64,000 nt of DNA from a virus, in the IMG/VR virus record IMGVR_UViG_3300028176_000002, positions 1 through 64,000 of that record; one strand, given 5' to 3'. The position numbers and the translations under genes are program-made. The notes beneath the pieces were generated by a model. That model ran no database searches and was not told where the DNA came from. It worked only from the letters and a program-made list of their open reading frames with translations. Position 1 is the first letter of the stretch. Each line of letters starts with the position of its first letter. Below, in pieces: positions 6,421-46,581 of the stretch.

Positions 6421-6421
6421 T

Positions 6422-28204: not shown

Positions 28205-29683
28205 ATGGCTGGTATAAATAAATGTCCATATTGTTATAGAAAATTGAATCCGAATACATGGAAGAACGACCCCATATTAAATCCTAACGGTTCGGATTAT
28301 GATTGGACGGATTCTACTCATTTATTTAAAGTTATCGAAGAAAAAGATAAATTATATAAAGGTTATCAGCAGATTCGAGCAGAAGATATAATTGAATTAC
28401 AGACCGCATTAATTGCATTAGAAACTGCAATTTTATCCCCTGCAAATTACACCATTTTCTCTCCAGTCGTAGTTAATGGAAAATTCCAAATTACAGGTAA
28501 ACAATTAAAAGAAATGAGAGATTCAGTAGAGGGATTATTATTTTCTCAAGGTTTAACAAAAATAGAATATTTTAATTATGACGAAGAAGGAGAACATATA
28601 ATTCATCCTTTAGGGGATAAACAGGAATGGACAGACCCTATAACATTAGTAACTGATTTAGAAAAATTTCAGGTAAGATACATACATATTGAAGAGTTAA
28701 GGCATTTTATTACTTCAATATGGGAAGATTTTACTAAGGTAGGTATTGATTCTGCTAGTGCTGTTGCAGCATCAAGCACAGATATTCATACTTTTACGTT
28801 ACAGAAAAAACAATTATGGGTTGGAACTGCTTCTTCAGGTCATGAATTATATGACCATTATCAATCTAATGGCAGTGCTAACATAGCTATAGGAAATACT
28901 ACTATTGGTAATGCTGCTGGTGCTGCTATTCAAAATCCAGAGCATGTAGGAGTAAGTGTTTATTCCTCTGCGGTTGCCTCTAGCGGTGGAGTAGCTGCAC
29001 AAATACCACAGATAATGATAGGTGGAGTAGGTACTTTAGATATGAGTTATCCTATAACTAAAACAATATACAATCCTACTACTAAAACTAATGATTTGTA
29101 TCATTTATTTGTTAAAGCAGATTGTAGCGTATCTATGAGTGCTAGTGGAGATTATTCTAAAGGAACTGCTGGAGATGTATTTTTGGCTTATGGCAGTAAA
29201 TCTAATCCTCCAATCGAAGTAACTCAATGGAACGCTGCTCCTAAAAATGAACCAAATACATCAGCAGTAGCTCAGGCTTACGTATTATTAAATATACCTG
29301 TAAGATTTGATATGGGGAGTGGAGTATATATATCTTTATCACAAGATGTTTATCATAATTGCAGTACACCTGCAGGATATCCAGTATTATTAAATAATTT
29401 TGACATAGATTTAGCAGTTGCTATGAATAACATTTTTGGAATTATGACTGGTTATGTTAGCGGATTTGGAGTTGGTGCATATGTGAGTGGTAGTGCAAAT
29501 AATTGGGACCAAAAGACTGCGGATGCTCATTGGGTAGATGACCCTTTGATTCCTGACCCTGATGCAGTGATTTGGTATGGACCTTTTAACCCTACAGGGG
29601 GATATACCTCGGCAAGTGCTTCTTTTACTATAGACAATATTAATTTTTATTTTAAATTTATATCGGCAACACCAGTTCCTTAA
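28205..29683 (+). CDS. Putative tail fibre / receptor-binding protein
   Basis: Three QIxxxxIxELRxxI-type repeats, then Ser/Ala/Gly-rich beta C-terminus; last late gene. Confidence 0.6.
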   Translation: MAGINKCPYCYRKLNPNTWKNDPILNPNGSDYDWTDSTHLFKVIEEKDKLYKGYQQIRAEDIIELQTALIALETAILSPANYTIFSPVVVNGKFQITGKQLKEMRDSVEGLLFSQGLTKIEYFNYDEEGEHIIHPLGDKQEWTDPITLVTDLEKFQVRYIHIEELRHFITSIWEDFTKVGIDSASAVAASSTDIHTFTLQKKQLWVGTASSGHELYDHYQSNGSANIAIGNTTIGNAAGAAIQNPEHVGVSVYSSAVASSGGVAAQIPQIMIGGVGTLDMSYPITKTIYNPTTKTNDLYHLFVKADCSVSMSASGDYSKGTAGDVFLAYGSKSNPPIEVTQWNAAPKNEPNTSAVAQAYVLLNIPVRFDMGSGVYISLSQDVYHNCSTPAGYPVLLNNFDIDLAVAMNNIFGIMTGYVSGFGVGAYVSGSANNWDQKTADAHWVDDPLIPDPDAVIWYGPFNPTGGYTSASASFTIDNINFYFKFISATPVP

Positions 29684-30368
29684 TTTTTAAACGAAGATTA
29701 TCTTGGTCGGCAATTTCGGGGGACAATAACTCGTAGAATCTCTGGTAAGATATTTTTTCAAAACAATCTATATTGCTTTCAGGGGACACATTATAAATCT
29801 TTAATGTGTCCTTTTTTATTAATTTATTAAAATCGTTGTTCGGATTATGATTTTCATAATAACCTACATAACCTATTCCCCTATGATTAATATTATTATA
29901 ATAATGGGTCGGCACCTCTGTCTTTGGATTATAATTTGGGTCCCTCTCAGGCAGTCCCTTTCTTCGAGTCCAGTCGAAGCCTAATAGGTAGACCGTTCCG
30001 GTCTCCATTAGCTTCTCCGCTAACTTCAAAGCGAAAACTCCTGTTAAGTTTTCCTTTTCAGATTTATTTAACAAAATCGTATTATTTAATTTAAATTCCT
30101 CCACTCCATTATGATTTATGCCAATTATTAGAGGCAACTGCCGAAGTTTATCATAACAATCCGGGTTAGGTAGTTTACCGGTATCGTCTGGCTTAGGATG
30201 GTAGAAATCCCGGTCATTGAAGCACAAAAACGTGCCTGGAAACGTCTTAAAGGCGTAGTTGGTCAATATAGTGAACTTAGTGGCACACAGTGGCTGTAGT
30301 AGCGAAATTTGTGGCTTAATTGATGCTCCGCCACCTATAATGATGCATTCATTAGGCATATTACTCAT
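29658..30368 (-). CDS. Maf/DUF115-like (sialyltransferase-like fold) transferase
   Basis: CIIIGGGASI...TN.AF...CFND...TGVFAL..A...VYLLGFD...HYY...IYNVSP. Confidence 0.7.
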   Translation of the reverse strand: MSNMPNECIIIGGGASIKPQISLLQPLCATKFTILTNYAFKTFPGTFLCFNDRDFYHPKPDDTGKLPNPDCYDKLRQLPLIIGINHNGVEEFKLNNTILLNKSEKENLTGVFALKLAEKLMETGTVYLLGFDWTRRKGLPERDPNYNPKTEVPTHYYNNINHRGIGYVGYYENHNPNNDFNKLIKKDTLKIYNVSPESNIDCFEKISYQRFYELLSPEIADQDNLRLKIKELVLPI

Positions 30369-30612
30369 TCTTTACTCCCGGTTGTTGACACCACTTGCAT
30401 CCGTTCTTAAATAAGAATTCTTTATTAGGTATTTCACGTTCACAAAAAGGACATAATAATTTAGGTTCATGATAATAGCAGTCTGCACATGCAGACCAGA
30501 TAGTGCAGCAATCAGTATCTTCATTTTTACAGAGATTATGATTCCTGCATCTATTTAATCTCATTTTTTTATTAATTTCTTCCATCATGTTATCGTAATT
30601 GGATTTAGGCAT
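30361..30612 (-). CDS. Cys-rich small protein
   Basis: Multiple CxxC motifs, translationally coupled. Confidence 0.6.
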   Translation of the reverse strand: MPKSNYDNMMEEINKKMRLNRCRNHNLCKNEDTDCCTIWSACADCYYHEPKLLCPFCEREIPNKEFLFKNGCKWCQQPGVKNE

Positions 30613-31472
30613 TATACTCCTAACTTTTTTAAAATAGCATTAAATACTTCATCTACTGTAATAGCAGACATGCATGGATGTGGTTCTGTAGGACACGGAT
30701 TTTGTGTTGTTTTAGATAAATTATTATAAATTTTATTGCAGGGTGAACATTTTAAAGGTTTCCAGATATTAATATTATGCCCGTAACCGAATACGCCCGG
30801 ATGAGTAGAACCCCATAATATAACTGAAGGCGTATAGGGCAATAATGCAGTTGCATGATTAGAAAAACTATCTATACCTAAATGTAATGTTGCTTTTTTA
30901 ATTAATTGAATACATTCCGTAACACTTAATTTATTCCGCATATCAATAGTTCCGTTTAATTTCATATCACTTTTTCCTATTTGAACTATGGCGTAATCTG
31001 TCCGCCCGAGTGAACAAAATCGGTCTATTACTCCCTGCCAATTTTGAATATCCCAATCTTTATAAGGAGACCATCCAGAATTACAATGTATAGTTATTAC
31101 TTTCCTTTCAGAATTCATTAATACATTAAATTCTTTATTTTCCGTCGGAAGAAATTCAGGATAAAATCCATAATTATAAAAGTGGTCATCTAATCCTAAT
31201 TCTTTACCAAAATACCACGTTAAATGTTTAACTAAAGGTTTAGATGTATAACCGTATAGATTTTGTGCTCCAGGGGTCTTAATATCGAAATCAGCACTAC
31301 TTTTTACTTCATCTACCGCAGGACAAATAATAGGTAAATCTTTCCAACTTGGGTCGCAATAATAGATAATCTTATCATTAGGATTAAGTTTTTTATACTT
31401 ATCAATTGCCATAAGGGTCATGATTATATCACCCAGGGCTCCAGGACGATTTAAATGCAATGTTTTACTCAC
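30612..31472 (-). CDS. GT9 (heptosyltransferase-like) glycosyltransferase
   Basis: RPGALGDIIM...YKDW...LGIDSFSNHATA...ILWGSTHP...CSPC...CM..ITVDEV; GTG start at 31472 after AGGAGG. Confidence 0.85.
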   Translation of the reverse strand: MSKTLHLNRPGALGDIIMTLMAIDKYKKLNPNDKIIYYCDPSWKDLPIICPAVDEVKSSADFDIKTPGAQNLYGYTSKPLVKHLTWYFGKELGLDDHFYNYGFYPEFLPTENKEFNVLMNSERKVITIHCNSGWSPYKDWDIQNWQGVIDRFCSLGRTDYAIVQIGKSDMKLNGTIDMRNKLSVTECIQLIKKATLHLGIDSFSNHATALLPYTPSVILWGSTHPGVFGYGHNINIWKPLKCSPCNKIYNNLSKTTQNPCPTEPHPCMSAITVDEVFNAILKKLGV

Positions 31473-32151
31473 GTTCAATTGCCTCCTGACAAAAGGTAAG
31501 TACGAAATATATTGTTGATTTAATTTCCTTAAAGTTCGTAGTCGAAGAAAAAAGTCTGAATTCAAGCGTCTCGTAATCAGTTTTAGGTAAATGCGAAATG
31601 TTCAATGACCTGTATTTTTCGTCAAGTGAAGAATAACCACTAAAAGAATAACCATTATGATTACGATATTGATGTATTACTTTTTCGGTCAATTTATAAT
31701 CTTTTTTAGGTAAAAATTTACATGTTTCTGAAAGTCTCTCTTTAGATACATTAAATCTTTTGGCAATATACTTTTGACGATGAACCCATTCACGAATAAT
31801 GTTTAATACCGCTTTATCTGATAAATTTTTAACATTAATATGTAGGTGTAACCCGCACGATGGTAATGCTTTAGCCTTATATACTCGGCATAATGCTAAT
31901 ATTTCTTTTATTTGCATCAAAGAGTCTTCATTATAGAATAGATGGTTTGATTTCTCAGGCGAAAGTTCAATACCATTTTTTAATGAACCATCTGACTTAA
32001 TTTCCCATCCTTTAAGAGTTTTCCCCCGGTCAATTAACTTATCCGCATCAGTCTTAGCCGGAAGTTCGAACTCAAATTCTGGGGAATAACGGATTCTAGT
32101 AATATCCGTAAGTTTTATTTCTTCTTTTTTAACTCGTTTTATTTTCTTCAT
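31465..32151 (-). CDS. Putative amidoligase (COOH-NH2 ligase family)
   Basis: EFEF...W.IKSDGSL..GIELSP...SCGLHLHI...KYRSLN...TLEFRLF. Confidence 0.85.
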   Translation of the reverse strand: MKKIKRVKKEEIKLTDITRIRYSPEFEFELPAKTDADKLIDRGKTLKGWEIKSDGSLKNGIELSPEKSNHLFYNEDSLMQIKEILALCRVYKAKALPSCGLHLHINVKNLSDKAVLNIIREWVHRQKYIAKRFNVSKERLSETCKFLPKKDYKLTEKVIHQYRNHNGYSFSGYSSLDEKYRSLNISHLPKTDYETLEFRLFSSTTNFKEIKSTIYFVLTFCQEAIERE

Positions 32152-32285
32152 TTATCCTCCACCAAGCAAAACGTCGTTTATCTTTATCAGATTTATTAAT
32201 AAATGGTATAAATCTAATGCAGATAATATAACCTTCTGATTTAAAATACCAATATAATTTCTTCTCATACCAAACAGTAAACATT

Positions 32286-32444
32286 TTACTCCTTATCAGG
32301 AACTTTTTTAATCTCCCAATGGTGTTTCTGATATGAAACATCTTCGCATATTATTAATACATCGTCTGTTCCTAATTCTTTTGATACAAATCCCTGTTTA
32401 ATTATTCCGGCATCTTTAAAATAAACCATCTGACCCATTCTCAT
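32286..32444 (-). CDS. Small hypothetical protein (52 aa)
   Basis: MRMGQMVYFKD...KVPDKE; AAAGGT SD; fills gap. Confidence 0.5.
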   Translation of the reverse strand: MRMGQMVYFKDAGIIKQGFVSKELGTDDVLIICEDVSYQKHHWEIKKVPDKE

Positions 32445-32456
32445 GAGTACCTTTCT

Positions 32457-33206
32457 CTATTTATCATAGATTATCCATCCGTTAATATTTAATTTTTTTC
32501 TAAGTAATTTTAAATAATCACCTAATCTTTTTCTATATTCTTTATATTCATCCCCACCAGCAGCATTATTCTTTTTAAATTTAATAGAATTAGTCCAAAA
32601 TACTTTAACATTACGTTTCTGTAATTCTAAAAACGCTAATTCATGTTCTCCTAGTTTAAATTCCACATCCCATAAGTCTGTGATGCTATTAGTTTTAGCT
32701 AAAAATATGTTCATACATATATCTACTTTTTGGAAAGATAAGTTATTAGAAATCATATAATCCTCAGATTTCTTAAAATGAATTCCTTTATTATCAACAT
32801 ACATATAAAAATTCCATGGAGCTTTGGCATTCTCTAATTCAAATCCAACTACACCATAATTAGATTCAGAATTTAAGAAATCTATAATAGGTTCAAAATT
32901 ATATTTTTCAGTAAACTGAATTGAATCAGAAGAAACTAAACAATAATCATATCCCAATTCTTTAGCCTTATTAACCAAGAAATTTCTAGCATAACTAAGT
33001 CCGCAATCAAAAGGAAGATAATATACTTCACAGGGAATCTGGGATTTAAAATAATCATATGTTATAATCTTTTCATCCGTTTGATATCCCTGGTCTGCAA
33101 TTAAAACTATACACTCTTCTGTATAATTATCTACAATAGATTGTACCGTTTTGTACAATGCGTAATCTCTTAAAAATGTGGTTATAAGTATTGCTACTTT
33201 ATTCAC
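32457..33206 (-). CDS. GT-A glycosyltransferase, B4GALNT/GT12-like
   Basis: ITTFLRD...IADQG...LPFDCGLSYARNFLV...DICMNIFLAKT...WD..FKLGEH. Confidence 0.8.
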   Translation of the reverse strand: MNKVAILITTFLRDYALYKTVQSIVDNYTEECIVLIADQGYQTDEKIITYDYFKSQIPCEVYYLPFDCGLSYARNFLVNKAKELGYDYCLVSSDSIQFTEKYNFEPIIDFLNSESNYGVVGFELENAKAPWNFYMYVDNKGIHFKKSEDYMISNNLSFQKVDICMNIFLAKTNSITDLWDVEFKLGEHELAFLELQKRNVKVFWTNSIKFKKNNAAGGDEYKEYRKRLGDYLKLLRKKLNINGWIIYDK

Positions 33207-33371
33207 TAATCCTCCAAGTTTACTTCAATAATCGAGGCATTCCAGTAACTGTTTCCCATTAATGGGGTATTTGTTCTTTTGCAACATGTTTCTGCCTTCT
33301 TTTTTGAGAGAAATGCTTTTGCAATATGGTGAAAATTTTCTCCTGAATTATATACCACTAAATACACTATT

Positions 33372-35312
33372 TTACCCATTTTTTAATTCCTCCCAGGTCT
33401 GTTTAAATGTTTTTTCTAAATAAGCAACTACAGGTATAGGAACATTAATATTTAAATCATAAAGTTTAGCGGGTTTAATGATACGTTTTGGCTCTACTTT
33501 AATATTAAGCAATTCTTTGCAGTATTCAAATGTTTTTAGAATCAATTCTTTTTCATTTAGAGTAGAAACACCTATATACAGTTTATCGGAAACTATGTCT
33601 TTTTTGGTAACTGCTTCTAAGCAAGAGTAATTCAATAACCAGAAAACAATAGAATTTTTATTTAGATAATTAATAATCTTAATAATAATTTCCTTCTGCT
33701 CTATATTTATTTTATTAACTTTATTGTATTCTACTGTTTCGAGTTTTTGAATTTTAATTTCAGGGGGTTTTGGTGTATTAGAATCTAAAGGTAAATAAGT
33801 AACTGGAGTTATAGTGTTTGCTGTTTTTTCTAATTGATATAATGAACTCTTATTAAACGTATAAAAATCAGCGACATTCCAATATACTTTTAGATAATCT
33901 AACTCTTTTTTTCTTGTCCTTAATGCATTATAAGTAGGATTTTTATTATCATGAACGTGTTTAATTTCTGTTTCAGGACAGAACCCAACAGTATAATTAG
34001 TTTTTGTTTTAACTAACAAATATACATGCGTATGTTCTATTGTTTTAACATTGTCATCAAAAATATTTGGTACTTCTCTTTTCCACATGGTAAAATCAGA
34101 TACTATATTTGCTCTAAGAAATTTAGTTCCTTTGCTAGTAAATTCCCATTTAGCTAGATTTTTTTCGATTAAATAGTCTAGGGGGAAGTAACAAATTTTA
34201 TTATCTGCTCTATTTAAAAAATATGAATAAGAACCTGTAGTAGCGTATCCTTCTAAGTTTCCACCCACTATACCCAAAGCTGGGTTTTCTTCCAGTATTT
34301 CTCTAAGTTTATATAAGTTAGTCTTATAAGTAGCCTGGAAATCATCTTCCATATATACTAGATACTTTTCTTTACATAATTCTTTTAAAATTCTTCTAGT
34401 TTTACTAATTCCGCTATCATACGGTATATATTTAATTGTATGACCGAGTTTAGTTAATTTAGCATATAATTTATCCTTTTTTTCGGAATGTTCCCCCTGG
34501 TCAACAATATACATTTTAAATTCCTGTAGATGCAATAGTATGGAGTCTATTAATCTAAAAAGAGATTCATCTCTTAAAAATGTAGAGATTCCGAGTCCAA
34601 TATCTTTATTTCTACTACTTTTAATTAAATTTATACCTAGATATTTAATTTTCCAATCAATATCTGACATTTCTTTTCCAGTTACCTTTTCCAGACCGTC
34701 ATCTACGTTTTCTCTAACATAGAAAATATCAGGATAAAATACAAAATTAAATTTTGCTTGTTTAACTCGAATCCAAAATTCCCAGTCTTCATATGGTATA
34801 TTTTTATATCCCTTAACTTTTGACCATACGGATTTTTTTAATAGACTGGAACCTGTTAAACGGTTATAATTAACCAAATCTTCTAATGTAAAAGTTTCAT
34901 GACCCCAATCAAATGTTTTATTATGAAGGTTAGATTTTAAATTTTTTAGTGTAATTTTATAATTAATTACGTCTGCTTCTGGATGTTTCGCTATATGTTT
35001 TTTTAAACTTTCCAGTGGATTTTTTGTATAGTAATCATCGTCATCTAGGAACGTAATCCATTCAGATGTACAGTTCTTTATTCCTGTATTCCGTGCTTCT
35101 CCAAGACCTCTATTCGAGCCATGCTCAATATATTTTATTTTTGGATAACAAGAAAGTATATTTTTAATATAATCAGTATGTTCTTTATCAGAACCATCAT
35201 TGACGAGTATTACTTCATCAAATTCTACGAAATATACAGAATCTAAGGCTCGTTTTAACCATGCAGTTCTATTATAGGTAGGTATAATTAAACTAATCGT
35301 AGGGTTATACAT
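33372..35312 (-). CDS. Multidomain glycosyltransferase: GT2, B4GALNT-like GT, degenerate LicD-like C-terminus
   Basis: IIPTYNR..VNDGS..ARNTG..FLDDDD..EDWEFW; STFLRD..VDQG..PYDSGIS..MEDDF..EH; FWLL...VP..YLEKTF; start at MYNPT after GAGGG. Confidence 0.85.
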   Translation of the reverse strand: MYNPTISLIIPTYNRTAWLKRALDSVYFVEFDEVILVNDGSDKEHTDYIKNILSCYPKIKYIEHGSNRGLGEARNTGIKNCTSEWITFLDDDDYYTKNPLESLKKHIAKHPEADVINYKITLKNLKSNLHNKTFDWGHETFTLEDLVNYNRLTGSSLLKKSVWSKVKGYKNIPYEDWEFWIRVKQAKFNFVFYPDIFYVRENVDDGLEKVTGKEMSDIDWKIKYLGINLIKSSRNKDIGLGISTFLRDESLFRLIDSILLHLQEFKMYIVDQGEHSEKKDKLYAKLTKLGHTIKYIPYDSGISKTRRILKELCKEKYLVYMEDDFQATYKTNLYKLREILEENPALGIVGGNLEGYATTGSYSYFLNRADNKICYFPLDYLIEKNLAKWEFTSKGTKFLRANIVSDFTMWKREVPNIFDDNVKTIEHTHVYLLVKTKTNYTVGFCPETEIKHVHDNKNPTYNALRTRKKELDYLKVYWNVADFYTFNKSSLYQLEKTANTITPVTYLPLDSNTPKPPEIKIQKLETVEYNKVNKINIEQKEIIIKIINYLNKNSIVFWLLNYSCLEAVTKKDIVSDKLYIGVSTLNEKELILKTFEYCKELLNIKVEPKRIIKPAKLYDLNINVPIPVVAYLEKTFKQTWEELKNG

Positions 35313-37212
35313 TTTCCCTCCGATTTTCTTTATAATTAATAATAGCACTCTCTCCGAGTGTATACCCTTTTTCAATACCGTATTTTTCGTATATAAAATT
35401 ATAATACATTCTTTTTCTCATTTCACGGTATTTTTCATCATCTACTGGATGCTGGTGTTCAATTAAAACATCTGGAATAAACGCTATTTTAACATTGCTA
35501 TTTAATTTTATATTTAAGAAAAAATCCATGTGTTCAGAATGTATTTTATGTTTGATATCCCAGGGATTATTTTTTAAGACTTCAGTTTTAGCTAAAAAGA
35601 AGTTATAAATGATGTCGCATATACCATATTTTATTTGATTTATCTGGTGAGGTTCTATAGTTTTATTATCTACTAATTTATTCCACTCTATCGAAAGTAA
35701 AATTTTATCTAGTATGAACAAAAATTTCTCATAAGATTTTACTTGACCTTCTTGCCACAATCTTCCGCCCACTATTCCAATATCTTTATTAGCTGAAAAA
35801 ACCTCCATCATATTATATATATTCGTGTTACGTGTTAGAATAAAATCATCTTCTAATAATAAAGTATACTGCGTTTTTACCTGCTTAACTAACTCATTTC
35901 GGGCATAACTTAGTCCACAGTCTTCTGGTAGTTGTAAAACAGTAACGTTTTCATGTGTTATATTTATAGGTTCTTTATTTTGACTTCCTATAATTAGAGG
36001 AATATCTGGGTATAAATTACAGAAGGATTTAACTAACCTATCTAATGACTTTTCTCTATTTAAAGTAGTAACTACTGCAGTAATTGCAGAATAAGTGTTA
36101 TCTGTATTAGAAAACTGTGTAAATTCCCAACCTGGATTAGGTATTCTCCAACTTTCGCCATATAAATAGGCTAAATATTTTTCTGACTCATTTGGCACTC
36201 TAAATTTAGTTCCTAAGAAATCGATATATTTTAGAGGAACTATTAAATCTAGCGGAACTTTCATTCTCCATTCTTCATTCCAGTGTTTATGTATTCTATT
36301 GGGTTTATAAGAATAACAGTATGAATATTTTTCATCTGAAGTATGAAAAAATAAATCTACGTGTGGATGATTAGTATTTCCTTTATATACCGCCAATTCC
36401 TTATCCCACTGATATTTATATTTAAAATCTGACTTATCCAAAATTTCCTTTACCTTCCATCTATCGTTTATATCCAAACTTATATCAATATCGTTTGGGT
36501 CGTGTGCTATAAAATCTTTATCTCTCACTGCACCTAATAGAGTACCTGTTTGTAACCAGAATTGAATACCATTAAAATCTAGAAGAGATTTTAAATCTAA
36601 TAGCAATTCTTTTTGTGTGAATATTTTGTTGGTAGGGACACTTCTAACTCCATTAAAATATTGGTATAACTGTTTGTTTGGTACTGCGGGTTTATACGAT
36701 AATGGAGTTATCCATTTTTTCCCATATAGCACTTCTAGCATTTTCTCTGGATTCTTAGGTATATTAAATATTTCTCCCTTTAATTCTATTTGTTTAAAGG
36801 GCAGTATATCTTCTTTATTTAATTCCCCATTAATATGATAAAAAGTATAGAATTTATCATCTTCTCCAATCCAACCGTGCCATCCGTCAAACCAATTCTT
36901 TTCAACAAAATAATGGTTTTGTCCTAAAAAATGTAAATCTCCGCATAACCGTTTTTCGTTATGAAATTTATTATCAATATCAATTATCTGTTTTTTTACT
37001 TCTTCTTTAATATTTACAGTATGAAAAATAATAATATCAAAATCATTGTCAGATAAGATTAAATCTCTTTCTCGCATAGCACCAAGAAGAGTACCGCCAT
37101 ATAAGAGAATATCATACCCCATTTTCTTAAAATCGGTTTCTAATGTTTTAAGTTTTTTAATTGCTGAATCTTTATCTTCTTCGGTCCAATCTCTAAAAAA
37201 TGGGTAACTCAT
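35305..37212 (-). CDS. LicD-LicD-GT fusion (two fukutin/LicD domains plus B4GALNT-like GT)
   Basis: GGTLLGAMRE..DNDFDI; GTLLGAVRD..DPNDIDI; two F.xP....L..LYG..W..P ends; LPEDCGLSYARN..LLEDDF..YNFFLAKT..EHMDFF. Confidence 0.9.
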   Translation of the reverse strand: MSYPFFRDWTEEDKDSAIKKLKTLETDFKKMGYDILLYGGTLLGAMRERDLILSDNDFDIIIFHTVNIKEEVKKQIIDIDNKFHNEKRLCGDLHFLGQNHYFVEKNWFDGWHGWIGEDDKFYTFYHINGELNKEDILPFKQIELKGEIFNIPKNPEKMLEVLYGKKWITPLSYKPAVPNKQLYQYFNGVRSVPTNKIFTQKELLLDLKSLLDFNGIQFWLQTGTLLGAVRDKDFIAHDPNDIDISLDINDRWKVKEILDKSDFKYKYQWDKELAVYKGNTNHPHVDLFFHTSDEKYSYCYSYKPNRIHKHWNEEWRMKVPLDLIVPLKYIDFLGTKFRVPNESEKYLAYLYGESWRIPNPGWEFTQFSNTDNTYSAITAVVTTLNREKSLDRLVKSFCNLYPDIPLIIGSQNKEPINITHENVTVLQLPEDCGLSYARNELVKQVKTQYTLLLEDDFILTRNTNIYNMMEVFSANKDIGIVGGRLWQEGQVKSYEKFLFILDKILLSIEWNKLVDNKTIEPHQINQIKYGICDIIYNFFLAKTEVLKNNPWDIKHKIHSEHMDFFLNIKLNSNVKIAFIPDVLIEHQHPVDDEKYREMRKRMYYNFIYEKYGIEKGYTLGESAIINYKENRRENV

Positions 37213-37715
37213 TAATTACTCCTCTTTGCTTGCGATTTAATAATACGCACCGCACTGTTAATAATCTTTTCTTTAATTTTAGAAGATGATAATCGCTTAG
37301 TATAAGGGATAAAAGCAATCTTATTATTATCTCTAAGCCAATTTATGCCGGGATTATCTTTTCGATTCTTCCAATCATCTCCTACAACGAATAAATCCGC
37401 TTTCAATTGGATAAATTGTTCAATATCTACTAATTTAGTTTGCTTAACAACCTTATCCACTATCTTTAATTCTTTAATAATAGCAGTCCTATCTTTATAG
37501 CAGATTATAGGACGCATGCCTTTATGCTGTAAAATGAGGGAATCTGTAGAAACCCCTACAATCAGATAGGTTCCCATTGCCTTAGCTTGTTTAAGGACAT
37601 TGATATGCCCAAAATGAAGTAAATCGAATGAGCCGGCAGTGAATATTACTTTAATTTTTGATGACATTTTACGCATAGTGTAATTCCCCAGATAATGTTC
37701 CACATTAATTTGCAA
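37212..37715 (-). CDS. Glycerol-3-phosphate (polyol-phosphate) cytidylyltransferase, TagD-like (true start probably 37676 or 37667)
   Basis: GSFDLLHFGH (HxGH), LIVGVSTD, GDDW, RLSSSKIK. Confidence 0.9.
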   Translation of the reverse strand: MQINVEHYLGNYTMRKMSSKIKVIFTAGSFDLLHFGHINVLKQAKAMGTYLIVGVSTDSLILQHKGMRPIICYKDRTAIIKELKIVDKVVKQTKLVDIEQFIQLKADLFVVGDDWKNRKDNPGINWLRDNNKIAFIPYTKRLSSSKIKEKIINSAVRIIKSQAKRSN

Positions 37716-38287
37716 CTTCTAATGTCAATAATGGATTTTAATTGATACATTTCTATTATACAAACAACTGGTATTTTATGATGAGCATTTATATTGCCTT
37801 TTGCACCACATACTTGGCAAGTATAATCATCTCGTTTAAACACCCTATTTCTCCAATTCTTATATTTTAACGAAGCGTAAACCAACAAATTTAAAGTTGT
37901 TCTTCCACCTTTCCAATTCGGATTTTTATTTCCACTTATGTCATTATTTTTATAATATAATTTTTTATTACAGCTTTTACAACGTAAACTAATCCCTTTA
38001 CCTAATTTCTTTTCACAATCAAGACAAAATTCTACTTTGCAATATTTTCCATGTTTAAAACTTGGAGCAGATGTACCATTTTTACCAAACATAGGATTAT
38101 TTACTCCAGCCATTTCTTTGCTCCGTTTTTCTTTTTGCTTTTTACTAAACCTGAATCCAAACATAGGATTTCCTGTTCCCGCCAACGTCTTATAATAACA
38201 TTCACGACATAATTTATTACTGTTATAATGAGCAGTTTTAGATAGTTTTTTATCGCATCGAAGACAGTAGACTGATTTAATCATCAA
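37646..38287 (-). CDS. HNH endonuclease with zinc-finger and NUMOD3 repeats
   Basis: GNPMFG x2, NPNWKGG, WRNRVFKRDDYTCQVC..AHHK...GITLCVKCH. Confidence 0.9.
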   Translation of the reverse strand: MMIKSVYCLRCDKKLSKTAHYNSNKLCRECYYKTLAGTGNPMFGFRFSKKQKEKRSKEMAGVNNPMFGKNGTSAPSFKHGKYCKVEFCLDCEKKLGKGISLRCKSCNKKLYYKNNDISGNKNPNWKGGRTTLNLLVYASLKYKNWRNRVFKRDDYTCQVCGAKGNINAHHKIPVVCIIEMYQLKSIIDIRSCKLMWNIIWGITLCVKCHQKLK

Positions 38288-38771
38288 AAAGCACCAAACC
38301 TATTCTGTAGAAGTAGTCTTTTACTGGAAACTTTAAATTTAATTTGGTTATTTTTTTAACCGCAGCGACTACATCTAGTCCTGTTCCCTCCAATGGAATG
38401 ATTGCCTTATCAGGAAATCGACATGGAAACGAACATACATCGCAATTCTTGCAGGAGCCAGCACCAAAACATACTCCAAAATGCCCATCTGATAATAGTT
38501 TTGCTCTAATTGCGAATAATTTGTCCTGTATTTCTTTACTAGATGAAACTCCCAATTCTTTCCAATTTTCAGGATTTTCTATCAAAAATTTCTTAAATAC
38601 CAGTGCCCCATGCTCAAATTTAGGTAGAATCTTTTTATAATAGCTTACTGATTCAATAAAAGGGGGACACTGTGCCTTGAACCCGTACCTTTTACAGCTT
38701 TTACAGTATTCTCTTACTTTATCACTAAAAAATTCTTCCAATATCTTCGGGTCAAACATTATCTGTTTCAT
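38277..38771 (-). CDS. DUF2284 metal-binding protein
   Basis: VREYC..CKRYG...CPP...GAGSCKNCDVC..PCRFP....LEGTGLDV. Confidence 0.85.
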   Translation of the reverse strand: MKQIMFDPKILEEFFSDKVREYCKSCKRYGFKAQCPPFIESVSYYKKILPKFEHGALVFKKFLIENPENWKELGVSSSKEIQDKLFAIRAKLLSDGHFGVCFGAGSCKNCDVCSFPCRFPDKAIIPLEGTGLDVVAAVKKITKLNLKFPVKDYFYRIGLVLFDD

Positions 38772-39379
38772 AACTTCCCTCCTATAATAATTTCGGGTAC
38801 TGAACATTCTTTCGGTAACTTAATTAACATTTTAATTATCTTTGCAATTTCTTTCGTTGAAACTGTTTTAAAATTACCCGGGCAAACAATTGTACTGTAA
38901 ATTCTCGGGTTATATTCAGCATTGATACATTGCGTAAGTCCTCTAAGAGCAAATTTAGACATAGTATAAATAGATTTATTTGGTGCTCCTGTAATAGACC
39001 TAGTAGAACCAATGTTAAGTATTAATCCTTCTTTCATTAATTTAATTGCTTCTTGGGTCATATAAAATGTTCCTTTAATATTTAAATCAATTAATCTCTC
39101 AATTTCAAATGGCGGATACGCTGTTAATGGACGAAATTCTCCTAGCATACCTGCATTGTTTATTAGAACATCAATCCTTCCCCATTTTTCAAAAGTTTTG
39201 TACATCAATATCCCAGCATCACCTTGATTGGTTATGTCTCCTTTAACAACCAGACGGTTTTTAGATTCGATATTATAAGAACTCCGGCTTATAGTTGCAA
39301 TGTTATACTCGGATAAAGATTGCATAATATCTTTTCCTAATCCCCTACTCGTTCCTGAAATAACGATTACTTTTTTCAT
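38768..39379 (-). CDS. Short-chain dehydrogenase/reductase
   Basis: SGTSRGLG, DVLINNAG, S..YTMSK (YxxxK). Confidence 0.9.
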   Translation of the reverse strand: MKKVIVISGTSRGLGKDIMQSLSEYNIATISRSSYNIESKNRLVVKGDITNQGDAGILMYKTFEKWGRIDVLINNAGMLGEFRPLTAYPPFEIERLIDLNIKGTFYMTQEAIKLMKEGLILNIGSTRSITGAPNKSIYTMSKFALRGLTQCINAEYNPRIYSTIVCPGNFKTVSTKEIAKIIKMLIKLPKECSVPEIIIGGKL

Positions 39380-40065
39380 TAAAATTCCTTCTGTTTATTA
39401 TTTAGATATTTATCTTTTTTTATTAAGTTATCTTTCGCCCACAAGGGCTGTAAATTCGTGTAATTAAAACATTTACGCTGTTCGTCGGGTTTACTTAAAT
39501 CGAACGATGCACATGGTTTTATGTGGTCGCAATGTATTTCCCCATTTAATACTTTATCCCATTTCATTCCTTGTGTAAATTTAGATTGATAATATTTAAT
39601 GAAAAACGATATGGAACACCCTAGCAAATCTATAGTAGACATTGATTTGTTTTTTCCTCTTAAAACATTGCCAACCCGATTTCTTAAACAACAAGCAATT
39701 TTAAAGTTAATATCTGTTTTTAATCTATTTTTTACATATTCTCTTGCAACCTCTGCTATTCTTTTTTTGTTATTTTTCCTATATTTAGTCATATAAACTT
39801 GATTTTCTTTTGCATTATTCTTTTTCCATTCTTTTGAAAGTTCATTTAATTTTTCTTTATGAGTTTCATAGTATTCTTTTGTTATTTTTGTAATGTGTGT
39901 GTGATTCAGTTTTAAGTATTTTTTCCTATCTTTTTTATGCAGTTTTTGATATAATTTACTTCTACTTAAATTTGCCTGTTTAGCACATATATAAGAACAG
40001 TATTTTTGATTGTTGGATTTTCTTTTGTAAATGCATTTACAAACTATACAAGTTTTATTGTTCAT
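39379..40065 (-). CDS. HNH endonuclease (family B)
   Basis: IHCDHIKPCASFDL...CFNYTNLQPLWAKDNLIK; paralog of 6422-7108. Confidence 0.9.
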   Translation of the reverse strand: MNNKTCIVCKCIYKRKSNNQKYCSYICAKQANLSRSKLYQKLHKKDRKKYLKLNHTHITKITKEYYETHKEKLNELSKEWKKNNAKENQVYMTKYRKNNKKRIAEVAREYVKNRLKTDINFKIACCLRNRVGNVLRGKNKSMSTIDLLGCSISFFIKYYQSKFTQGMKWDKVLNGEIHCDHIKPCASFDLSKPDEQRKCFNYTNLQPLWAKDNLIKKDKYLNNKQKEF

Positions 40066-40242
40066 TATAAATTTTTTGCTCTCGGTTTTGGCACTAATAT
40101 AAAATTACTATCTTCGTTTGCATACACAGAACCTTTTCTAGTTAATTTATTAAGTTCTTTTATTAAATTAGGAAGATATTTAATCTTCTTCCAATCATAT
40201 GTAAGCATGATTAGAAATGCTGCCCACAATAATATCGTCCAA

Positions 40243-40794
40243 CTAATTCTTTTTCTCATATGCCTTCCCACTTTTTTGCCATACGCTATAGGCTTGGTTA
40301 ATGTCATTAATATCCACTGGTTGAAATTCCCAGCAATCCACTGATAAATCTACAATTACTGATTTCTTACCTAATCTTTTAAATACCCCCTCATTTCCAT
40401 GAGTATGTCCGCAGAAATTAAATTTAAAATCATCTCTTGCATGTCTCGGATTGTGAGTCATATGAATCTTATGACCCCCAAAATTCACATTAATAGATTC
40501 AATAATTGTTTTAGTGCCATTATTTGAATCATGATTTCCATCAATAAAAATAATATTTCTACATTTTATCTGATTTCTATAATAATCAAAGGCATTCTGA
40601 GGTGCATCTTTTGCCTCAGTGGATTTCTTCATGCAAAAATCTCCCAGAAAAAATAATACATCATTCTCATCAATCAATTCATTACAGTTTCTAATAATAG
40701 TTTCATCCATCTCTAAAGTGGTTTTAAATGGGCGTTTGCAGTATTCAATTATTTTTCCATGCCCGAGATGAAAATCCGATGCGAACCAGTTCAC
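40243..40794 (-). CDS. Calcineurin-like metallophosphoesterase
   Basis: SDFHLGH, LGDF, GNHD, GHTH. Confidence 0.9.
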   Translation of the reverse strand: MNWFASDFHLGHGKIIEYCKRPFKTTLEMDETIIRNCNELIDENDVLFFLGDFCMKKSTEAKDAPQNAFDYYRNQIKCRNIIFIDGNHDSNNGTKTIIESINVNFGGHKIHMTHNPRHARDDFKFNFCGHTHGNEGVFKRLGKKSVIVDLSVDCWEFQPVDINDINQAYSVWQKSGKAYEKKN

Positions 40795-41273
40795 CTTTTT
40801 CTCCTTTTTATTATTTGTCCTACTTTAATCATTTCGCTATATGTTAAATATTTGCTCTTTATTGAATTACATATAGAACAACATAGTGCTATATTATCAA
40901 TGCAATAACCTCTAAGACTATCTTTTCTGTCTATTGTTAAACGATGGAAAACACCTTTTATATCTTTTATTGCTTCCGCTTCTGATTTACCGCAGTAAAC
41001 ACATAACTTTTCTTGTTTCTCATACCACATTATAAAATCTTCTTTATTCAAATTAAATTCAACTGCTCTCTGTTTTGCATGTGCTTTTAATGCTTTATAT
41101 ATTCCCGCAGAGGAATACCAATATTTTTTTGCGGAAAGTTTTTGTTTAGGGTGTTGCCAATTTTTCCTGCAGCACGAATTACACCAATAATGCAAACCAA
41201 ATTTATCGTTCCCCCGATTAAACTGGTTAAATTTTTTATTTGATTTACATTTACTGCATATTTTACTTCGCAT
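40791..41273 (-). CDS. HNH-like endonuclease (family C)
   Basis: CVYCG...IDRKDSLRGY..DNIALCCSICNSIK. Confidence 0.85.
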   Translation of the reverse strand: MRSKICSKCKSNKKFNQFNRGNDKFGLHYWCNSCCRKNWQHPKQKLSAKKYWYSSAGIYKALKAHAKQRAVEFNLNKEDFIMWYEKQEKLCVYCGKSEAEAIKDIKGVFHRLTIDRKDSLRGYCIDNIALCCSICNSIKSKYLTYSEMIKVGQIIKRRKR

Positions 41274-41282
41274 TATTTCTCC

Positions 41283-41855
41283 TTATATTATTTTATCAAC
41301 AATACCGTATTGTAAAGCTTCATCCGCAAACAACCACAGTTCTCCATTCCGAATCTGATTCATTTGTTTAGCAATTAAGTGTGTTTTATTCTTTAATATT
41401 GCATCCATTCGCTTTTCCAGCTTAATTAAGAATGTAGTTCTATCTTTAATATGGGTTAAATAATCACCAACCATATCGCTAGAACAATGTTGCATCCAAA
41501 CCGCATTTCTAGTGATATAGCGTTTGTTTCCTACAACGCTAATCATCGCTGCCATTGAGCATGCTTCTCCTGTTATAATCGTATTCACAGGAGCTTTTAT
41601 AGCATGAATTGTGTCGATAATTGCTAAACCATAGCAAACCATCCCTCCGGGACTATTTATTTCTAGGGTGATTGGCTTTCTTTCATCCAAATAGTTCATT
41701 GCTCTTAATTTTGAGCAAACCATATCAGAAGAAAGATTATTAATTTCATCATACAAAAGGATGTACCTATTTTTGTTTAGAATCTTATAATAAAATTCTT
41801 CAGAATATTTATCATCCTTTTTGTCGCATTCTTCGTGCTCATCTTTTTTATACAT
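41283..41855 (-). CDS. clpP: ClpP-type protease subunit
   Basis: ITLEINSPGG.V..GLAIIDT...GEACSMAA...WMQH; start at MYKK after AAGGAGG. Confidence 0.9.
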   Translation of the reverse strand: MYKKDEHEECDKKDDKYSEEFYYKILNKNRYILLYDEINNLSSDMVCSKLRAMNYLDERKPITLEINSPGGMVCYGLAIIDTIHAIKAPVNTIITGEACSMAAMISVVGNKRYITRNAVWMQHCSSDMVGDYLTHIKDRTTFLIKLEKRMDAILKNKTHLIAKQMNQIRNGELWLFADEALQYGIVDKII

Positions 41856-43539
41856 CACTGCCTCCTTCGTAGTCAAGCCTTTTCCATTCATTTAATTTAG
41901 ACCATTTCTGGGGTTTGGGTATTATATTTTTCCAATCTATATACATTGCATCAAGTATTTTTTCACTGTTATTAGGAACCATGAAAGCACTATTATAAAA
42001 ATTCTTTTTAATTAAAGGGGATATATCTTCTTTATTTCCTATTTTTCTATAAGGAATAATATGATATTCCTCATTTTCAATCCATGAGGTCCAAACATCA
42101 ACAACAGTTTTATTACTGGGAGAAGATACACGCAGTTGTCCGCCATTATTATGGCATTTAACAAGTAATCCCACATGTCTTAAATCCCATGCAATTCTTT
42201 CCACTTCTTTTTTTACGTCTTCTACATTGGTGTATTTACTTAAATATGCAAAATCTATATCACTATCTCCTGGGATAAAACTATTATCTCTTATCGTACC
42301 TAATAATGTTCCATAAATCATATACAATTGTAAATTTAGTTTATTTTTAAAATAATCTTCAATATCTTTCATATCTTTTAAGTTCTGAGATTTTAACTTA
42401 TTATTTCTATCTGCAAAAGTGGTTACACTGTGGTCTTTTTCTCCAGGAAATTTAGTAGTTAAATATTCTTTATTAAATAATTTTTGTTCGTCATGTTGAA
42501 CATTTTTTCTATTAATAGTTCTAACATCTTCTGGAATATCCTTTAGACTATCTAGTAGTATACACGCATTTCTAGATTCTTCATATTTTCCAATCCAATA
42601 AGAAGATATACTCAATTCAAATAATAAACAATAATCATATGTTGGTAAATTAACAAAAAGCATATCATGTGGTTTAGGTATTTCTAATCCTTTTTTAGTA
42701 AATAAATAAGCTTGCTGATATTCCCCATTATTCCTGCATATATATGCTAACTTATATAAAGGTTCTGCTCTGGAAGGTCTATATTCCCATGATTTTAAAT
42801 AAGCTAATTTAGCATTATCATTATCTTTTAATAATTCATAACAATATCCAATTTGATATAGAGAATAAAATACCTCTTGGTCCCAACCTTTCATTTCAAC
42901 TCTTTTATTAAATGTTTCAATTGCTTTTTCGTATTGTCCTACATCACGATATGTATTTGCCAAATAGAAATAATACCGAGCATTATTAGGTTCATCTTTT
43001 ACACCCTGCAGTAATAAGGTTAAATCATTCATTCCTTTGGGTCTAGCCGGTCCGTGGCGGTCATGATTGATGCTCAATGAAGTAATTCTCTCTCTCGTTT
43101 TAATATCCTCAGCATACCAATACTCATGCACACAGCCAACACTTTTCCACGCCAAACGATTATTAAATAACAGGTGATTAGAAAATTCACTTCCTGCCCA
43201 ATGGATAATTGTTTCGTATTGGTCTGCTACCAATTTATTTTTATCAAATCCATTTAATTCTACTAGGAAATCTGCATCTAACATCAATGAGTAATCTGCT
43301 TTATCTTTAGTTAATACAGCCACCTCACTACGATTATATCCAAAATTAACCCACGGACGATGTACGTATTCTCCCGGAATACTTTTTAATACTTCTTTGG
43401 CAATAATTTCAGTATCATCAGTAGAGCCGGTATCGCAGATAACCCAATAATCTATAATGGGCTTGACAGCTTCTAATGTTGCTCGAATATTTAGAGCCTC
43501 ATTTTTCACCATCATTCCTAAACATAATGTTTTACTCAT
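41848..43539 (-). CDS. GT2-TPR-LicD fusion protein
   Basis: LGMMVKNE..CDTGSTD..LDAD..VHE; TPRs (RYYFYLANTYRD, RAEPLY); IYGTLLGTIRD..PGDSDIDF. Confidence 0.9.
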   Translation of the reverse strand: MSKTLCLGMMVKNEALNIRATLEAVKPIIDYWVICDTGSTDDTEIIAKEVLKSIPGEYVHRPWVNFGYNRSEVAVLTKDKADYSLMLDADFLVELNGFDKNKLVADQYETIIHWAGSEFSNHLLFNNRLAWKSVGCVHEYWYAEDIKTRERITSLSINHDRHGPARPKGMNDLTLLLQGVKDEPNNARYYFYLANTYRDVGQYEKAIETFNKRVEMKGWDQEVFYSLYQIGYCYELLKDNDNAKLAYLKSWEYRPSRAEPLYKLAYICRNNGEYQQAYLFTKKGLEIPKPHDMLFVNLPTYDYCLLFELSISSYWIGKYEESRNACILLDSLKDIPEDVRTINRKNVQHDEQKLFNKEYLTTKFPGEKDHSVTTFADRNNKLKSQNLKDMKDIEDYFKNKLNLQLYMIYGTLLGTIRDNSFIPGDSDIDFAYLSKYTNVEDVKKEVERIAWDLRHVGLLVKCHNNGGQLRVSSPSNKTVVDVWTSWIENEEYHIIPYRKIGNKEDISPLIKKNFYNSAFMVPNNSEKILDAMYIDWKNIIPKPQKWSKLNEWKRLDYEGGSDV

Positions 43540-43680
43540 TCTTCTACCTCACATTCATAAATTTCAGTACCATCATCTTTTAATTCTTTTAATTTCCACG
43601 GTAAAGAATTAAGCATTGAATCTAAATCTTTTCCATTCATTCCCATTTTATTAAATTTATTATAAAGTGCCAAAAAGAAA

Positions 43681-44118
43681 TTATCCACGATTGACCTCTG
43701 TTTTTGTAGACTTACTATAAATGATTGTATTATCGGGAACATTTTTTGTGATTACCGTTCCTGCTCCAACAAGAACATTCTTCCCAATCTTCACGGGTAA
43801 GATAGTAGAATTAGAACCTATTGATGAATTATTTCCTACATAGGTCTTTTCCATAACCCAATCTTTATTATTGACCCGAGGATTTTTATCATTTGTAAAA
43901 ACGACAGAGTGTCCAATAAATACATCATTACCTAATATTACTCCTCCACAAATAAAAGAATGAGATTGTATTCTGCAATTTTTACCTATAATAACTCCTC
44001 TGGTAATTTCTACAAAAGGACCTATAAAACTTCCCGAACCGATTTCGCATTCATAGAGATTAACTAATTCTGGGTGAGGTATTTTTACGTTTTTTCCTAA
44101 TTTAACATTCTTTATCAT
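43681..44118 (-). CDS. Hexapeptide-repeat sugar acyltransferase
   Basis: IGKNCRIQSHSFIC..GNDVFIGHSVVFTND..IGSNSTILPV.IG.N.LVGAG. Confidence 0.9.
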   Translation of the reverse strand: MIKNVKLGKNVKIPHPELVNLYECEIGSGSFIGPFVEITRGVIIGKNCRIQSHSFICGGVILGNDVFIGHSVVFTNDKNPRVNNKDWVMEKTYVGNNSSIGSNSTILPVKIGKNVLVGAGTVITKNVPDNTIIYSKSTKTEVNRG

Positions 44119-46450: not shown

Positions 46451-46581
46451 TTGATTTCCTTCCAGATTAACCCCTTACCACAATAAGGACAGTAACGATA
46501 ATTTGTATCAGTAATATGCAAAGACTCTTTTTCTCGTTTATCGCAATTATGAATAGATATCTTACGCTTCTTGGTCGTCAT
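46447..46581 (-). CDS. Small zinc-ribbon protein (44 aa)
   Basis: MTTKKRK..HNC...YCPYCGK; ATGA overlap with aminopeptidase stop. Confidence 0.55.
   Translation of the reverse strand: MTTKKRKISIHNCDKREKESLHITDTNYRYCPYCGKGLIWKEIK

Follow-up and report, generated by a model that had tools for sequence, protein, structure and literature searches.

The virus record IMGVR_UViG_3300028176_000002 (hereafter G000) is a complete genome of an uncultured phage, 96,496 bp long and bounded by direct terminal repeats of 85 bp. Its first 64 kb (the window; ~32% G+C) carry, on the minus strand at 29658-44118, a block of LicD, glycosyltransferase (GT) and cytidylyltransferase genes, which a sequence-only reading had described as a fukutin/FKRP-like pathway and a candidate for decoration of the phage's own virion. 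We found that this block is one variant of a hypervariable glycan-decoration island. As a biochemical reading, a soluble line that would make a CDP-alditol and use it in LicD and GT reactions is well supported by the genomic context. The block stands out for its size, for fusion enzymes that resemble FKRP and B4GALNT1, and for belonging to a variable island that is shared across the family and has a Maf-like gene as its anchor. Our favored explanation as a whole, in which the island would build an alditol-phosphate glycan in the cytoplasm on an acceptor that is most likely a protein, and probably a virion component, is offered tentatively, with a confidence a little short of even.

All three LicD domains previously called intact were recovered. 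PF04991 scored 67.9 bits on the LicD-LicD-GT protein (35305-37212), in three stretches with two N-terminal motifs, and 34.2 bits on the GT2-TPR-LicD protein (41848-43539), both above the gathering cut-off of 22.6. In an alignment, GTLLGAxR, the D-x-D-x-D triad and a downstream Asp were kept in all three domains, and D238, D241, D243 and D286 of the second were invariant across 21 homologues; judged by these motifs, the three domains are catalytically intact. The LicD-LicD-GT protein matched FKRP by sequence (6kaj, 4e-4), and its AlphaFold2 (AF2) model (pLDDT 90) matched B4GALNT1 (9h6k, 3e-20) and FKRP (6kal, 3e-9) in Foldseek. The N-terminal anchor and stem domain of fukutin/FKRP type were not found in it: there is no transmembrane (TM) segment, the tandem LicD domains come first and the GT-A domain after them, and FKRP_N (PF22921) stayed below its cut-off (21.1 vs 27) and was placed on the GT domain. 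For a further, degenerate LicD at the end of the GT2-GT protein (33372-35375, or 33372-35312 from its likely true start, ATG 35312), the earlier claim stood in part. The C-terminal ~110 aa align to both ends of the LicD domain and hold the flanking motifs, but the acidic triad and core strands are missing, and hhalign gave P 0.0017 and a probability of 15%; a degenerate LicD is a plausible but weak assignment. The same ~110-residue module is C-terminal in the large GT proteins of three relatives (G002, G003 and G004).

The LicD-LicD-GT architecture, with ~33 homologues, was almost confined to phage-size contigs. Its sole full-length match among 185,579 species genomes lies on L110 (JAEOSD010000017.1), a phage-like contig of 27.5 kb and 25% G+C binned in a Promethearchaeota (Asgard) metagenome-assembled genome from the Yap Trench. 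L110 carries phage-family genes (SbcCD, IspD, a short-chain dehydrogenase/reductase (SDR), LicD-LicD-GT, a GT and the Maf-like gene) and is probably a mis-binned phage contig, or else a hint about the host. In 50,697 deposited phage genomes, tblastn with the LicD-LicD-GT protein found the GT domain only, in Salinibacter phages; in the same collection, the glycan block had no megablast match and the putative G000 terminase no tblastn relative. In BFVD, the LicD-LicD-GT model matched giant-virus proteins with LicD-GT and IspD-LicD-like layouts. In relatives, inteins split two genes: that for LicD-GT, in a form of 767 aa with LAGLIDADG, and an island gene of 853 aa.

The count of three B4GALNT-like GT domains was also borne out. 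Human B4GALNT1 (9h6j) matched by sequence the domains fused in 35305-37212 (aa 374-588, E 6e-12) and 33372-35375 (aa 261-380, 2.3e-4), and blastp joined these and the stand-alone copy (32457-33206) as paralogues (1e-15 to 1e-20). Among 80 viral loci recovered from IMG/VR with a profile of the LicD-GT family, 28 hold a homologue of the stand-alone enzyme. The fused paralogues have a metal-binding motif of the E/D-D-D type (EDD in both fused copies of G000); the stand-alone protein and its closest orthologues read (A/S)-D-S, a conserved departure that may mark changed or lost activity. Pfam matches sustained the two GT2 domains (PF00535, 7.9e-37 on 33372-35375 and 4.9e-6), the GT9, the SDR, the hexapeptide acyltransferase and the amidoligase. 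On 41848-43539, Pfam found GT2, TPR and LicD (PHROG 13126, 1.5e-29), and the GT2-TPR part matched SunS (7msp, 1.4e-5) and GmaR (3.3e-5); this core has >3,300 relatives, some fused to LicD, GT9 or GT4, and GT2-TPR-GT9 fusions were found in metagenomes. The GT9-like gene was confined to G000 among the relatives compared, with no homologue in G001-G004, and its only PDB matches were lipopolysaccharide heptosyltransferases, at E 0.1; its four C-terminal Cys suggested a possible connection with autotransporter heptosyltransferases.

The proposed Maf-like transferase (mini-Maf) was recognized by fold search alone. Its AF2 model (pLDDT 88.5) matched Maf (5mu5) in Foldseek at E 4e-4 and superposed on it with Z 14.8 and rmsd 4.0 over 204 residues; scores for CstI/II (Z ~9) and the HPPK MptE (Z 8.9) were lower. 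A profile of the mini-Maf matched no PDB sequence, and ESM Atlas gave a 13% lead to PF01973 only. As had been noted from the letters, no transferase of the block has a TM segment (no 19-residue hydrophobic window reaches 1.6) and no flippase is visible: nothing in the complete genome matches PF00953, PF02397, PF01943, PF04138 or PF04464, so that WecA-/WbaP-type priming enzymes, Wzx, GtrA and TagF-type polymerase are all missing. Because the enzymes are soluble and neither a lipid-carrier priming enzyme nor a flippase is encoded, assembly would take place in the cytoplasm. Calling the line self-contained was an overstatement, since G000 has no nucleotide-sugar synthesis genes and host donors would be needed.

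The CDP-activated donor would come from a cytidylyltransferase that stands, as first described, immediately upstream of the LicD-LicD-GT gene. PF01467 scored 62.7 bits on it (cut-off 21), TagD (1coz) matched at 2.7e-23, and the top single-domain score against the PDB was that of TagD (85.8 bits). TagD enzymes are marked by HxGH and an RTxGISTT-type C-terminal motif; here, HFGH is present and the C-terminal position reads TKRLSSS. The SDR is a candidate keto-sugar-phosphate reductase yielding an alditol phosphate; it is weakly homologous to the SDR portion of the IspD-SDR fusions, as well as to the SDR that adjoins IspD in L110 and L008. SDR, DUF2284 and cytidylyltransferase genes also form a trio in G001, G010, L009 and L030, and in G001 and G010 the series SDR-DUF2284-TagD-like-LicD-GT is an uninterrupted run. 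Of the 80 viral loci, 55 have a cytidylyltransferase no farther than 10 kb from LicD (TagD-like, 47; IspD-SDR fusion, 9). G003 and G004 carry such a fusion (424 and 430 aa) beside LicD, in the slot of the G000 donor gene, and L110 has split IspD and SDR genes ahead of LicD-LicD-GT; no fusion was found in G000, which has a separate SDR and a TagD-type enzyme. Bcs1, a bifunctional CDP-ribitol synthase, is built as just such an IspD-SDR fusion, and TarIJ follows a similar logic. This co-occurrence, together with non-orthologous replacement in sister phages, supports the pairing of CDP-alcohol and LicD chemistry. Because the reductase is kept while the type of cytidylyltransferase is exchanged, and no choline kinase was found in G000, alditol phosphate appears the likeliest head group, most simply ribitol-5-phosphate; CDP-glycerol is a possible product of the TagD-type enzyme.

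We then placed the block in its genomic setting. As far as 29,683, the plus strand encodes structural proteins (portal and capsid, collagen-like fibres, a protein with a Gly-rich domain, a tape-measure-like protein and large tail proteins). From 29,658 upward only the minus strand is used, by the glycan block and then by protease genes, a transporter gene and the replication genes (PolB, RecA-like, primase-polymerase, ligase and SbcCD-like). Four syntenic relatives, G001-G004, with 25-80% protein identity, carry glycan genes at the same junction. Fourteen members of this uncultured phage family were found via the capsid protein, six of them at least 90% complete, and the island lies between the last tail genes and the replication genes in every one. 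In all, the mini-Maf occurs on more than 100 contigs. The mini-Maf was present in 13 members, including all six complete ones, the sole exception being a 50% fragment; it is the sole core gene of the island. LicD was present in nine and absent from three of the six complete genomes, where different glycan genes fill the slot: GT2s, a sulfotransferase, a KdsA-type synthase and a KpsC/S-like Kdo transferase in G008; a UDP-sugar dehydrogenase, a GT4, three sulfotransferases and an epimerase in G011; and GT2, UDP-GlcNAc 2-epimerase, PseB-like, RmlD-like and GT29-like genes in G012. In G002, RmlD-like, GT4, PIG-L and WbqC genes stand alongside LicD. Because LicD is accessory and other glycan genes occur in the same slot, the block is one allele of a variable locus. 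The three LicD-negative slots (L241, L242 and L243, for G008, G011 and G012) also hold an NAD synthase and a protein with a GT29-like sialyltransferase motif, and their sulfotransferases are cytoplasmic.

From these domains and their linkage, we infer the following route. The SDR would reduce a host keto-sugar phosphate, most simply ribulose-5-phosphate to ribitol-5-phosphate, and the TagD-family enzyme would make the CDP-alditol, either CDP-ribitol or, directly from glycerol-3-phosphate, CDP-glycerol, with DUF2284 as a putative helper in this donor step. The mini-Maf would start the glycan and the variable modules would extend it: sugars would be added from host nucleotide sugars by the five GT-A domains, the GT9-like enzyme and the mini-Maf, alditol-phosphate would be passed to sugar hydroxyls by the three LicD domains, and one of the sugars would be acylated by the NeuD-like enzyme. 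The fusions (LicD-LicD-GT, GT2-TPR-LicD and GT2-GT-dead LicD) would lend themselves to alternating additions of sugar and alditol-phosphate, and the product would be a teichoic-acid-like or dystroglycan-core-like chain.

Two leads point, indirectly and by analogy, to a protein as acceptor: the Maf-like fold, and the likeness of the GT2-TPR protein to SunS and GmaR. The only role known for Maf is that of a cytoplasmic Ser/Thr O-glycosyltransferase of flagellin (PMC4065374); SunS, an S-glycosyltransferase, glycosylates a peptide, and GmaR flagellin (PMC9638930). That the genome encodes no priming enzyme, flippase or TagF-type polymerase also speaks for a protein. The prospect of a protein or virion acceptor is nearly balanced, tipping slightly toward no. 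A more specific version would have the family-wide mini-Maf start an O-linked glycan on a virion protein and the swappable island finish it strain-specifically, as a "serotype locus" of the particle. This version is doubtful, and we are equally hesitant about the finishes that it would entail, namely ribitol/glycerol-phosphate in G000 and sulfate, Kdo or nonulosonate sugars in relatives.

Several results weigh against a virion acceptor. The Gly-Thr-Thr collagen repeats are real (1582-2766, plus an open reading frame spanning the terminal repeat); when the proposed co-occurrence of such Thr-rich fibres with the cluster was examined, the repeats proved to be confined to G000 and G013, the relative nearest to it, and eight LicD-positive relatives all lacked them; the fibres do not co-vary with LicD. 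Structural proteins of G000 and G001-G004, capsid and tube included, have no Ser/Thr-rich C-termini, and LicD is dispensable in the family. The fibre is thus not supported as acceptor by its distribution, the virion proteins proposed at the outset are a candidate target only, and no acceptor was identified. For all its fold, the mini-Maf has no Pfam hit and is without the domains that flank the catalytic one in full-length Maf; a search of the genome with PF01973 found no match up to E 10, and G000 encodes no nonulosonate synthase. The last Ser of capsid or tube proteins was also considered as acceptor and rejected, there being no such pattern among the C-termini in G000 and G001-G004.

The strongest alternative keeps the chemistry and moves it to host lipid-linked precursors (O-antigen, capsule or teichoic-type) at the cytoplasmic face of the membrane; host exporters would display the altered glycan, which could block superinfection, keep progeny off debris or alter predation. 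A soluble look is also typical of peripheral enzymes that decorate lipid-linked host glycans, and bacterial LicD and prophage TarP act on such targets. Several findings speak for this alternative: the capsule-type KpsC/S-like Kdo transferase, accompanied by the KdsA-type synthase, in G008; a small (177-aa) multi-pass membrane protein that often adjoins the mini-Maf (G001, G011 and G012); a tyrosine recombinase in the genome; the accessory nature of LicD; and the promoter at 47543, the only clear one ahead of the block, which is an extended -10 site of sigma-70-like type with the motif that precedes replication genes. This is the role that Benler et al. suggested for licD in phages (PMC8008677), and in marine phages TagD is taken for an auxiliary gene directed at the host (PMC11515562, PMC6918029). 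However, TagD-like genes are also carried by phages whose Gram-negative hosts have no teichoic acids (PMC6918029). In addition, at least seven transferase domains are far more than known phage serotype-conversion sets contain, GtrA, Wzx and a priming enzyme are not encoded, two of the enzymes are closest, by structure and by sequence, to protein glycosyltransferases, and no matching host glycan can be named. We consider modification of the host surface unlikely, though a serious contender; the probability left after protein or virion and host glycoconjugates falls to other or mixed targets.

A second alternative accepts the pathway and changes its head group to phosphocholine, phosphoethanolamine or a phosphonate (2-aminoethylphosphonate). 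The top PDB E-value for the cytidylyltransferase was that of the ethanolamine-phosphate cytidylyltransferase ECT (3elb, 2.4e-24), CCT and the cytidylyltransferase domain of the PEP-mutase fusion 5x3d match as well, LicD was first defined as a phosphocholine transferase, and the neighboring major facilitator superfamily (MFS) transporter could import a head-group precursor. Moreover, the TagD equivalog TIGR01518 was not reached (92.2 vs 165.4 bits), nor was rfaE_dom_II (92.7 vs 181.5); with TagD, ECT and RfaE domain II scoring equally and below equivalog cut-offs, the sequence of the enzyme does not fix the head group, and the similarity of the SDR to Bcs1-like fusions (~25%) is at the generic SDR level. 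Nevertheless, the missing choline kinase weakens phosphocholine, there is no kinase or PEP mutase among the annotated genes, the best single-domain score belongs to TagD, and the SDR travels with the cytidylyltransferase and is fused to IspD in sister phages, as in CDP-ribitol synthase. We therefore regard a non-alditol head group as improbable.

Slightly less probable again is the absence of any single pathway, in which case the 14.5 kb would be a place between two transcription units where unrelated accessory genes and homing endonucleases collect, and its transferases would serve several independent purposes. Three HNH genes, ClpP, a metallophosphoesterase and the amidoligase are interleaved with the glycan genes, the amidoligase sits elsewhere in relatives, slot content differs among them, and LicD lies within 8 kb of the mini-Maf in only 15 of 33 mini-Maf loci. 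By contrast, the cytidylyltransferase-LicD-GT core is contiguous, and uninterrupted in G001 and G010, genes overlap or abut, and domain fusions (LicD with GT; GT2-TPR with LicD or GT9) join the activities physically. Modification of phage DNA, with a sugar or phospho-alcohol on a hypermodified base, is very improbable: the amidoligase belongs to a family seen in thymidine hypermodification clusters and homing endonucleases abound, but the complete genome has no thymidylate-synthase-like hydroxymethylase, no member of a DNA glycosyltransferase family was detected in it, LicD is not known to act on nucleic acids, and the amidoligase is unlinked to the island in relatives.

Table. Genes of the glycan block and its immediate neighborhood (window coordinates)
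Feature	Position	Strand	Evidence or domain layout
Mini-Maf (Maf/sialyltransferase-like), 236 aa	29658..30368	-	Fold match; adjoins last tail genes family-wide
GT9-like (heptosyltransferase-family)	30612..31565	-	PF01075 1.3e-7, 31.6 bits vs cut-off 22; four C-terminal Cys
Amidoligase_2	31465..32151	-	PF12224 2e-17
Stand-alone B4GALNT1-like GT-A domain	32457..33206	-	blastp to two fused paralogues 1e-20, 4e-15
GT2 + B4GALNT1-like GT + LicD-like remnant	33372..35375	-	~35303-34656, ~34613-33741, ~33713-33375
LicD-LicD-GT fusion	35305..37212	-	LicD ~37212-36643, LicD ~36630-36118, B4GALNT1-like GT ~36093-35308
TagD-family cytidylyltransferase	37212..37715	-	PF01467 5e-17; HFGH motif; stop abuts LicD-LicD-GT start at 37212
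HNH homing-endonuclease-like passenger	37646..38287	-	PHROG 8446 1e-13
DUF2284 Cys-rich metal-binding protein	38277..38807	-	PF10050 1e-24; travels with SDR and cytidylyltransferase
SDR	38768..39379	-	PF00106 4.5e-34
HNH-like endonuclease passenger, multi-copy family	39379..40065	-	C-terminal HNH-type motif in translation
Calcineurin-like metallophosphoesterase	40243..40794	-	PF00149 / PF12850 1e-5
HNH endonuclease-like passenger	40791..41273	-	PF01844 0.0087, weak
ClpP-family protease, not a glycan enzyme	41283..41891	-	PF00574 1.5e-36
GT2-TPR-LicD fusion	41848..43539	-	GT2 ~43539-43030, TPR ~43032-42640, LicD ~42372-41851
Hexapeptide-repeat acyltransferase, NeuD/PglD-like	43681..44118	-	PF00132 7e-22; TIGR03570 2.7e-17, below cut-off
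MFS transporter, folate/biopterin (BT1) family	44478..45656	-	PF03092 9e-17, PF07690 1e-16, TM segments

Among the other genes of the block, the amidoligase is conserved in G001-G004 and, because it occupies other genome positions there, is probably outside the pathway. Homologues of the metallophosphoesterase lie near the island in G001-G004 and adjoin the mini-Maf in G011; an accessory phosphatase is a possible role. The BT1-family transporter lies 360 bp past the block, has homologues in G001-G004, is conserved in the relatives at 43-56% identity and is odd for a phage; to our knowledge, its family is not a known glycan flippase type. Paralogues of the HNH-like passenger at 39379-40065 lie at 6395, 63911, 66872, 74765, 76353 and 89732 and match the same gene of relatives. 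Overall, at least two multi-copy HNH-type homing-endonuclease-like families, with at least 12 copies, are spread over the structural, glycan and replication modules, at 385-912, 6395-7108, 21045-21722, 22891-23508, 37646-38287, 39379-40065, 40791-41273 and 48375-48920 in the window and at the five G000 positions from 63911 upward beyond it.

The multi-pass membrane protein (170-180 aa, no family match; no ESM Atlas lead for the 177-aa form) bears on whether the island acts at the membrane. Besides the three relatives in which it adjoins the mini-Maf, it is found in 7-8 other loci at a distance of up to 8-10 kb from LicD or the mini-Maf; positions are G001 50933-51469, L242:8906-9427, L243:11031-11537 and, in G000, 94723-95256 (+) (L109:10723-11256), where the copy heads the late region, away from the mini-Maf. 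The tyrosine recombinase of G000 (77565-78386, minus strand; Phage_integrase family, 7e-22) stands beside a RuvB-like gene and could serve lysogeny or dimer resolution. Collagen-like genes lie at window 1-333 with G000 96319-96489, at window 1582-2766, and at G000 95682-95960 and 80478-81662; three have proline-free Gly-Thr-Thr/Gly-Ala-Val repeats, and the fourth, on the minus strand among early genes, has conventional charged triplets.

The promoter-like motif GCGGAG-N4-TATG(G/T)TATACT, of the extended -10 type, has two exact matches in the window (47523-47543 and 53674-53694, both minus strand) against 0.01 expected, and recurs in the G000 intergenic stretches 75338-75394 and 79846-79913; it precedes the M17 peptidase gene, a 122-aa gene and two genes beyond the window. 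Scans of the block for sigma-70 promoters and terminators did not exceed shuffled expectation, and the window holds no tRNAs. Protein-processing genes are unusually many for a phage (ClpP, M17 aminopeptidase, M50 membrane protease, peptide deformylase, trypsin-like protease and M14 carboxypeptidase; window 41283-41891, 46578-47480, 47803-48378 and 48920-49618, G000 68923-69777 and 70010-70762), and the M17 enzyme consists of the catalytic domain only, without an N-terminal domain.

Giant viruses and a few mycobacteriophages are established cases of viruses that encode the glycosylation of their own particles; Freeman et al. (2023) reportedly described it for the virions of Che8, Corndog and Myrna. 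Like the glycan clusters of these viruses, the island has soluble GTs beside structural genes and clade-specific gene sets, and its variability is like that of O-antigen and capsule loci, or of the glycan clusters that differ between giant-virus clades. Unlike the mycobacteriophages, G000 has capsid and tube proteins without Ser/Thr-rich C-terminal tails and is known from its genes alone. We know of no report of alditol-phosphate chemistry in either the mycobacteriophage or the giant-virus systems, nor of such teichoic-acid-like chemistry on any phage particle. If the serotype-locus reading were true, virus particles would be decorated with the LicD/cytidylyltransferase chemistry of the dystroglycan ribitol-phosphate core and of teichoic acids; if the host envelope were the target, the block would amount to a surface-remodelling set of a size unusual in phages.

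Phage TagD and LicD genes have so far been read as host-directed auxiliary genes or left unexplained. TagD has been called an auxiliary gene of marine phages, with a function that is unclear or cryoprotective (PMC11515562, PMC6918029). Benler et al. (2021) described a licD+ispD insertion in some 'Flandersviridae' gut phages and took ispD for an isoprenoid enzyme and licD for a teichoic-acid modifier (PMC8008677). There, as here, a phage LicD is paired with a cytidylyltransferase in part of a syntenic family (PMC8008677), whereas the insertion comprises two genes in the replication module and G000 has three LicD domains fused to GTs in a 14-kb island. We found no relevant literature on LicD in giant viruses, fukutin in bacteriophage, or phage-encoded CDP-ribitol. 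Here, the TagD/LicD genes belong to a variant of a Maf-anchored island in ~90-kb phages, which offers a testable model for the abundance of such genes in viromes.

Among cellular systems, the lic pathway of Streptococcus pneumoniae and H. influenzae (LicD1/LicD2) shares PF04991 and, as is predicted for the phage enzymes, moves a phospho-alcohol in the cytoplasm from a CDP-linked donor onto a glycan; G000 differs in having no LicA kinase, LicB-type transporter or LicC-type (NTP_transferase) enzyme, and in fusing LicD to GTs. The IspD-SDR fusion in the same slot of G003 and G004 resembles Bcs1/Acs1 of Haemophilus influenzae, and the split genes of L110 resemble TarI/TarJ; G000 keeps an SDR near its cytidylyltransferase, whereas that enzyme is of the TagD family and is accompanied by DUF2284, and the SDR of G000 is a possible orthologue of the Bcs1 reductase at most. 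The mini-Maf shares with Maf flagellin glycosyltransferases the catalytic-domain fold and a soluble cytoplasmic nature, whereas it comprises the central domain only (236 vs ~630 aa), and G000 has no flagellin or nonulosonate pathway. TagF-like capsule polymerases with TPR, of the Cps1B/Cps7D type, make sugar/alditol-phosphate repeats and have the same order of GT, TPR and polyol-phosphate transferase in one polypeptide; the phage phosphotransferase has the LicD fold instead of TagF/GT-B (PF04464 absent), and no export system is encoded with it.

A further parallel is with mammalian ISPD and fukutin/FKRP. The phage proteins differ in having no type II anchor, stem domain or secretory-pathway setting, in the order LicD-LicD-GT, and in a cytidylyltransferase of TagD type rather than IspD type. 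Nonetheless, the LicD fold matches FKRP both by sequence and by fold, the acidic triad is conserved, a cytidylyltransferase would serve as the source of CDP-alcohol, and the best solved relative of the GT-A domain attached to the phage LicD is human B4GALNT1. LicD-LicD-GT and GT2-TPR-LicD are compact, soluble fusion enzymes that could be assayed as minimal relatives of FKRP and fukutin.

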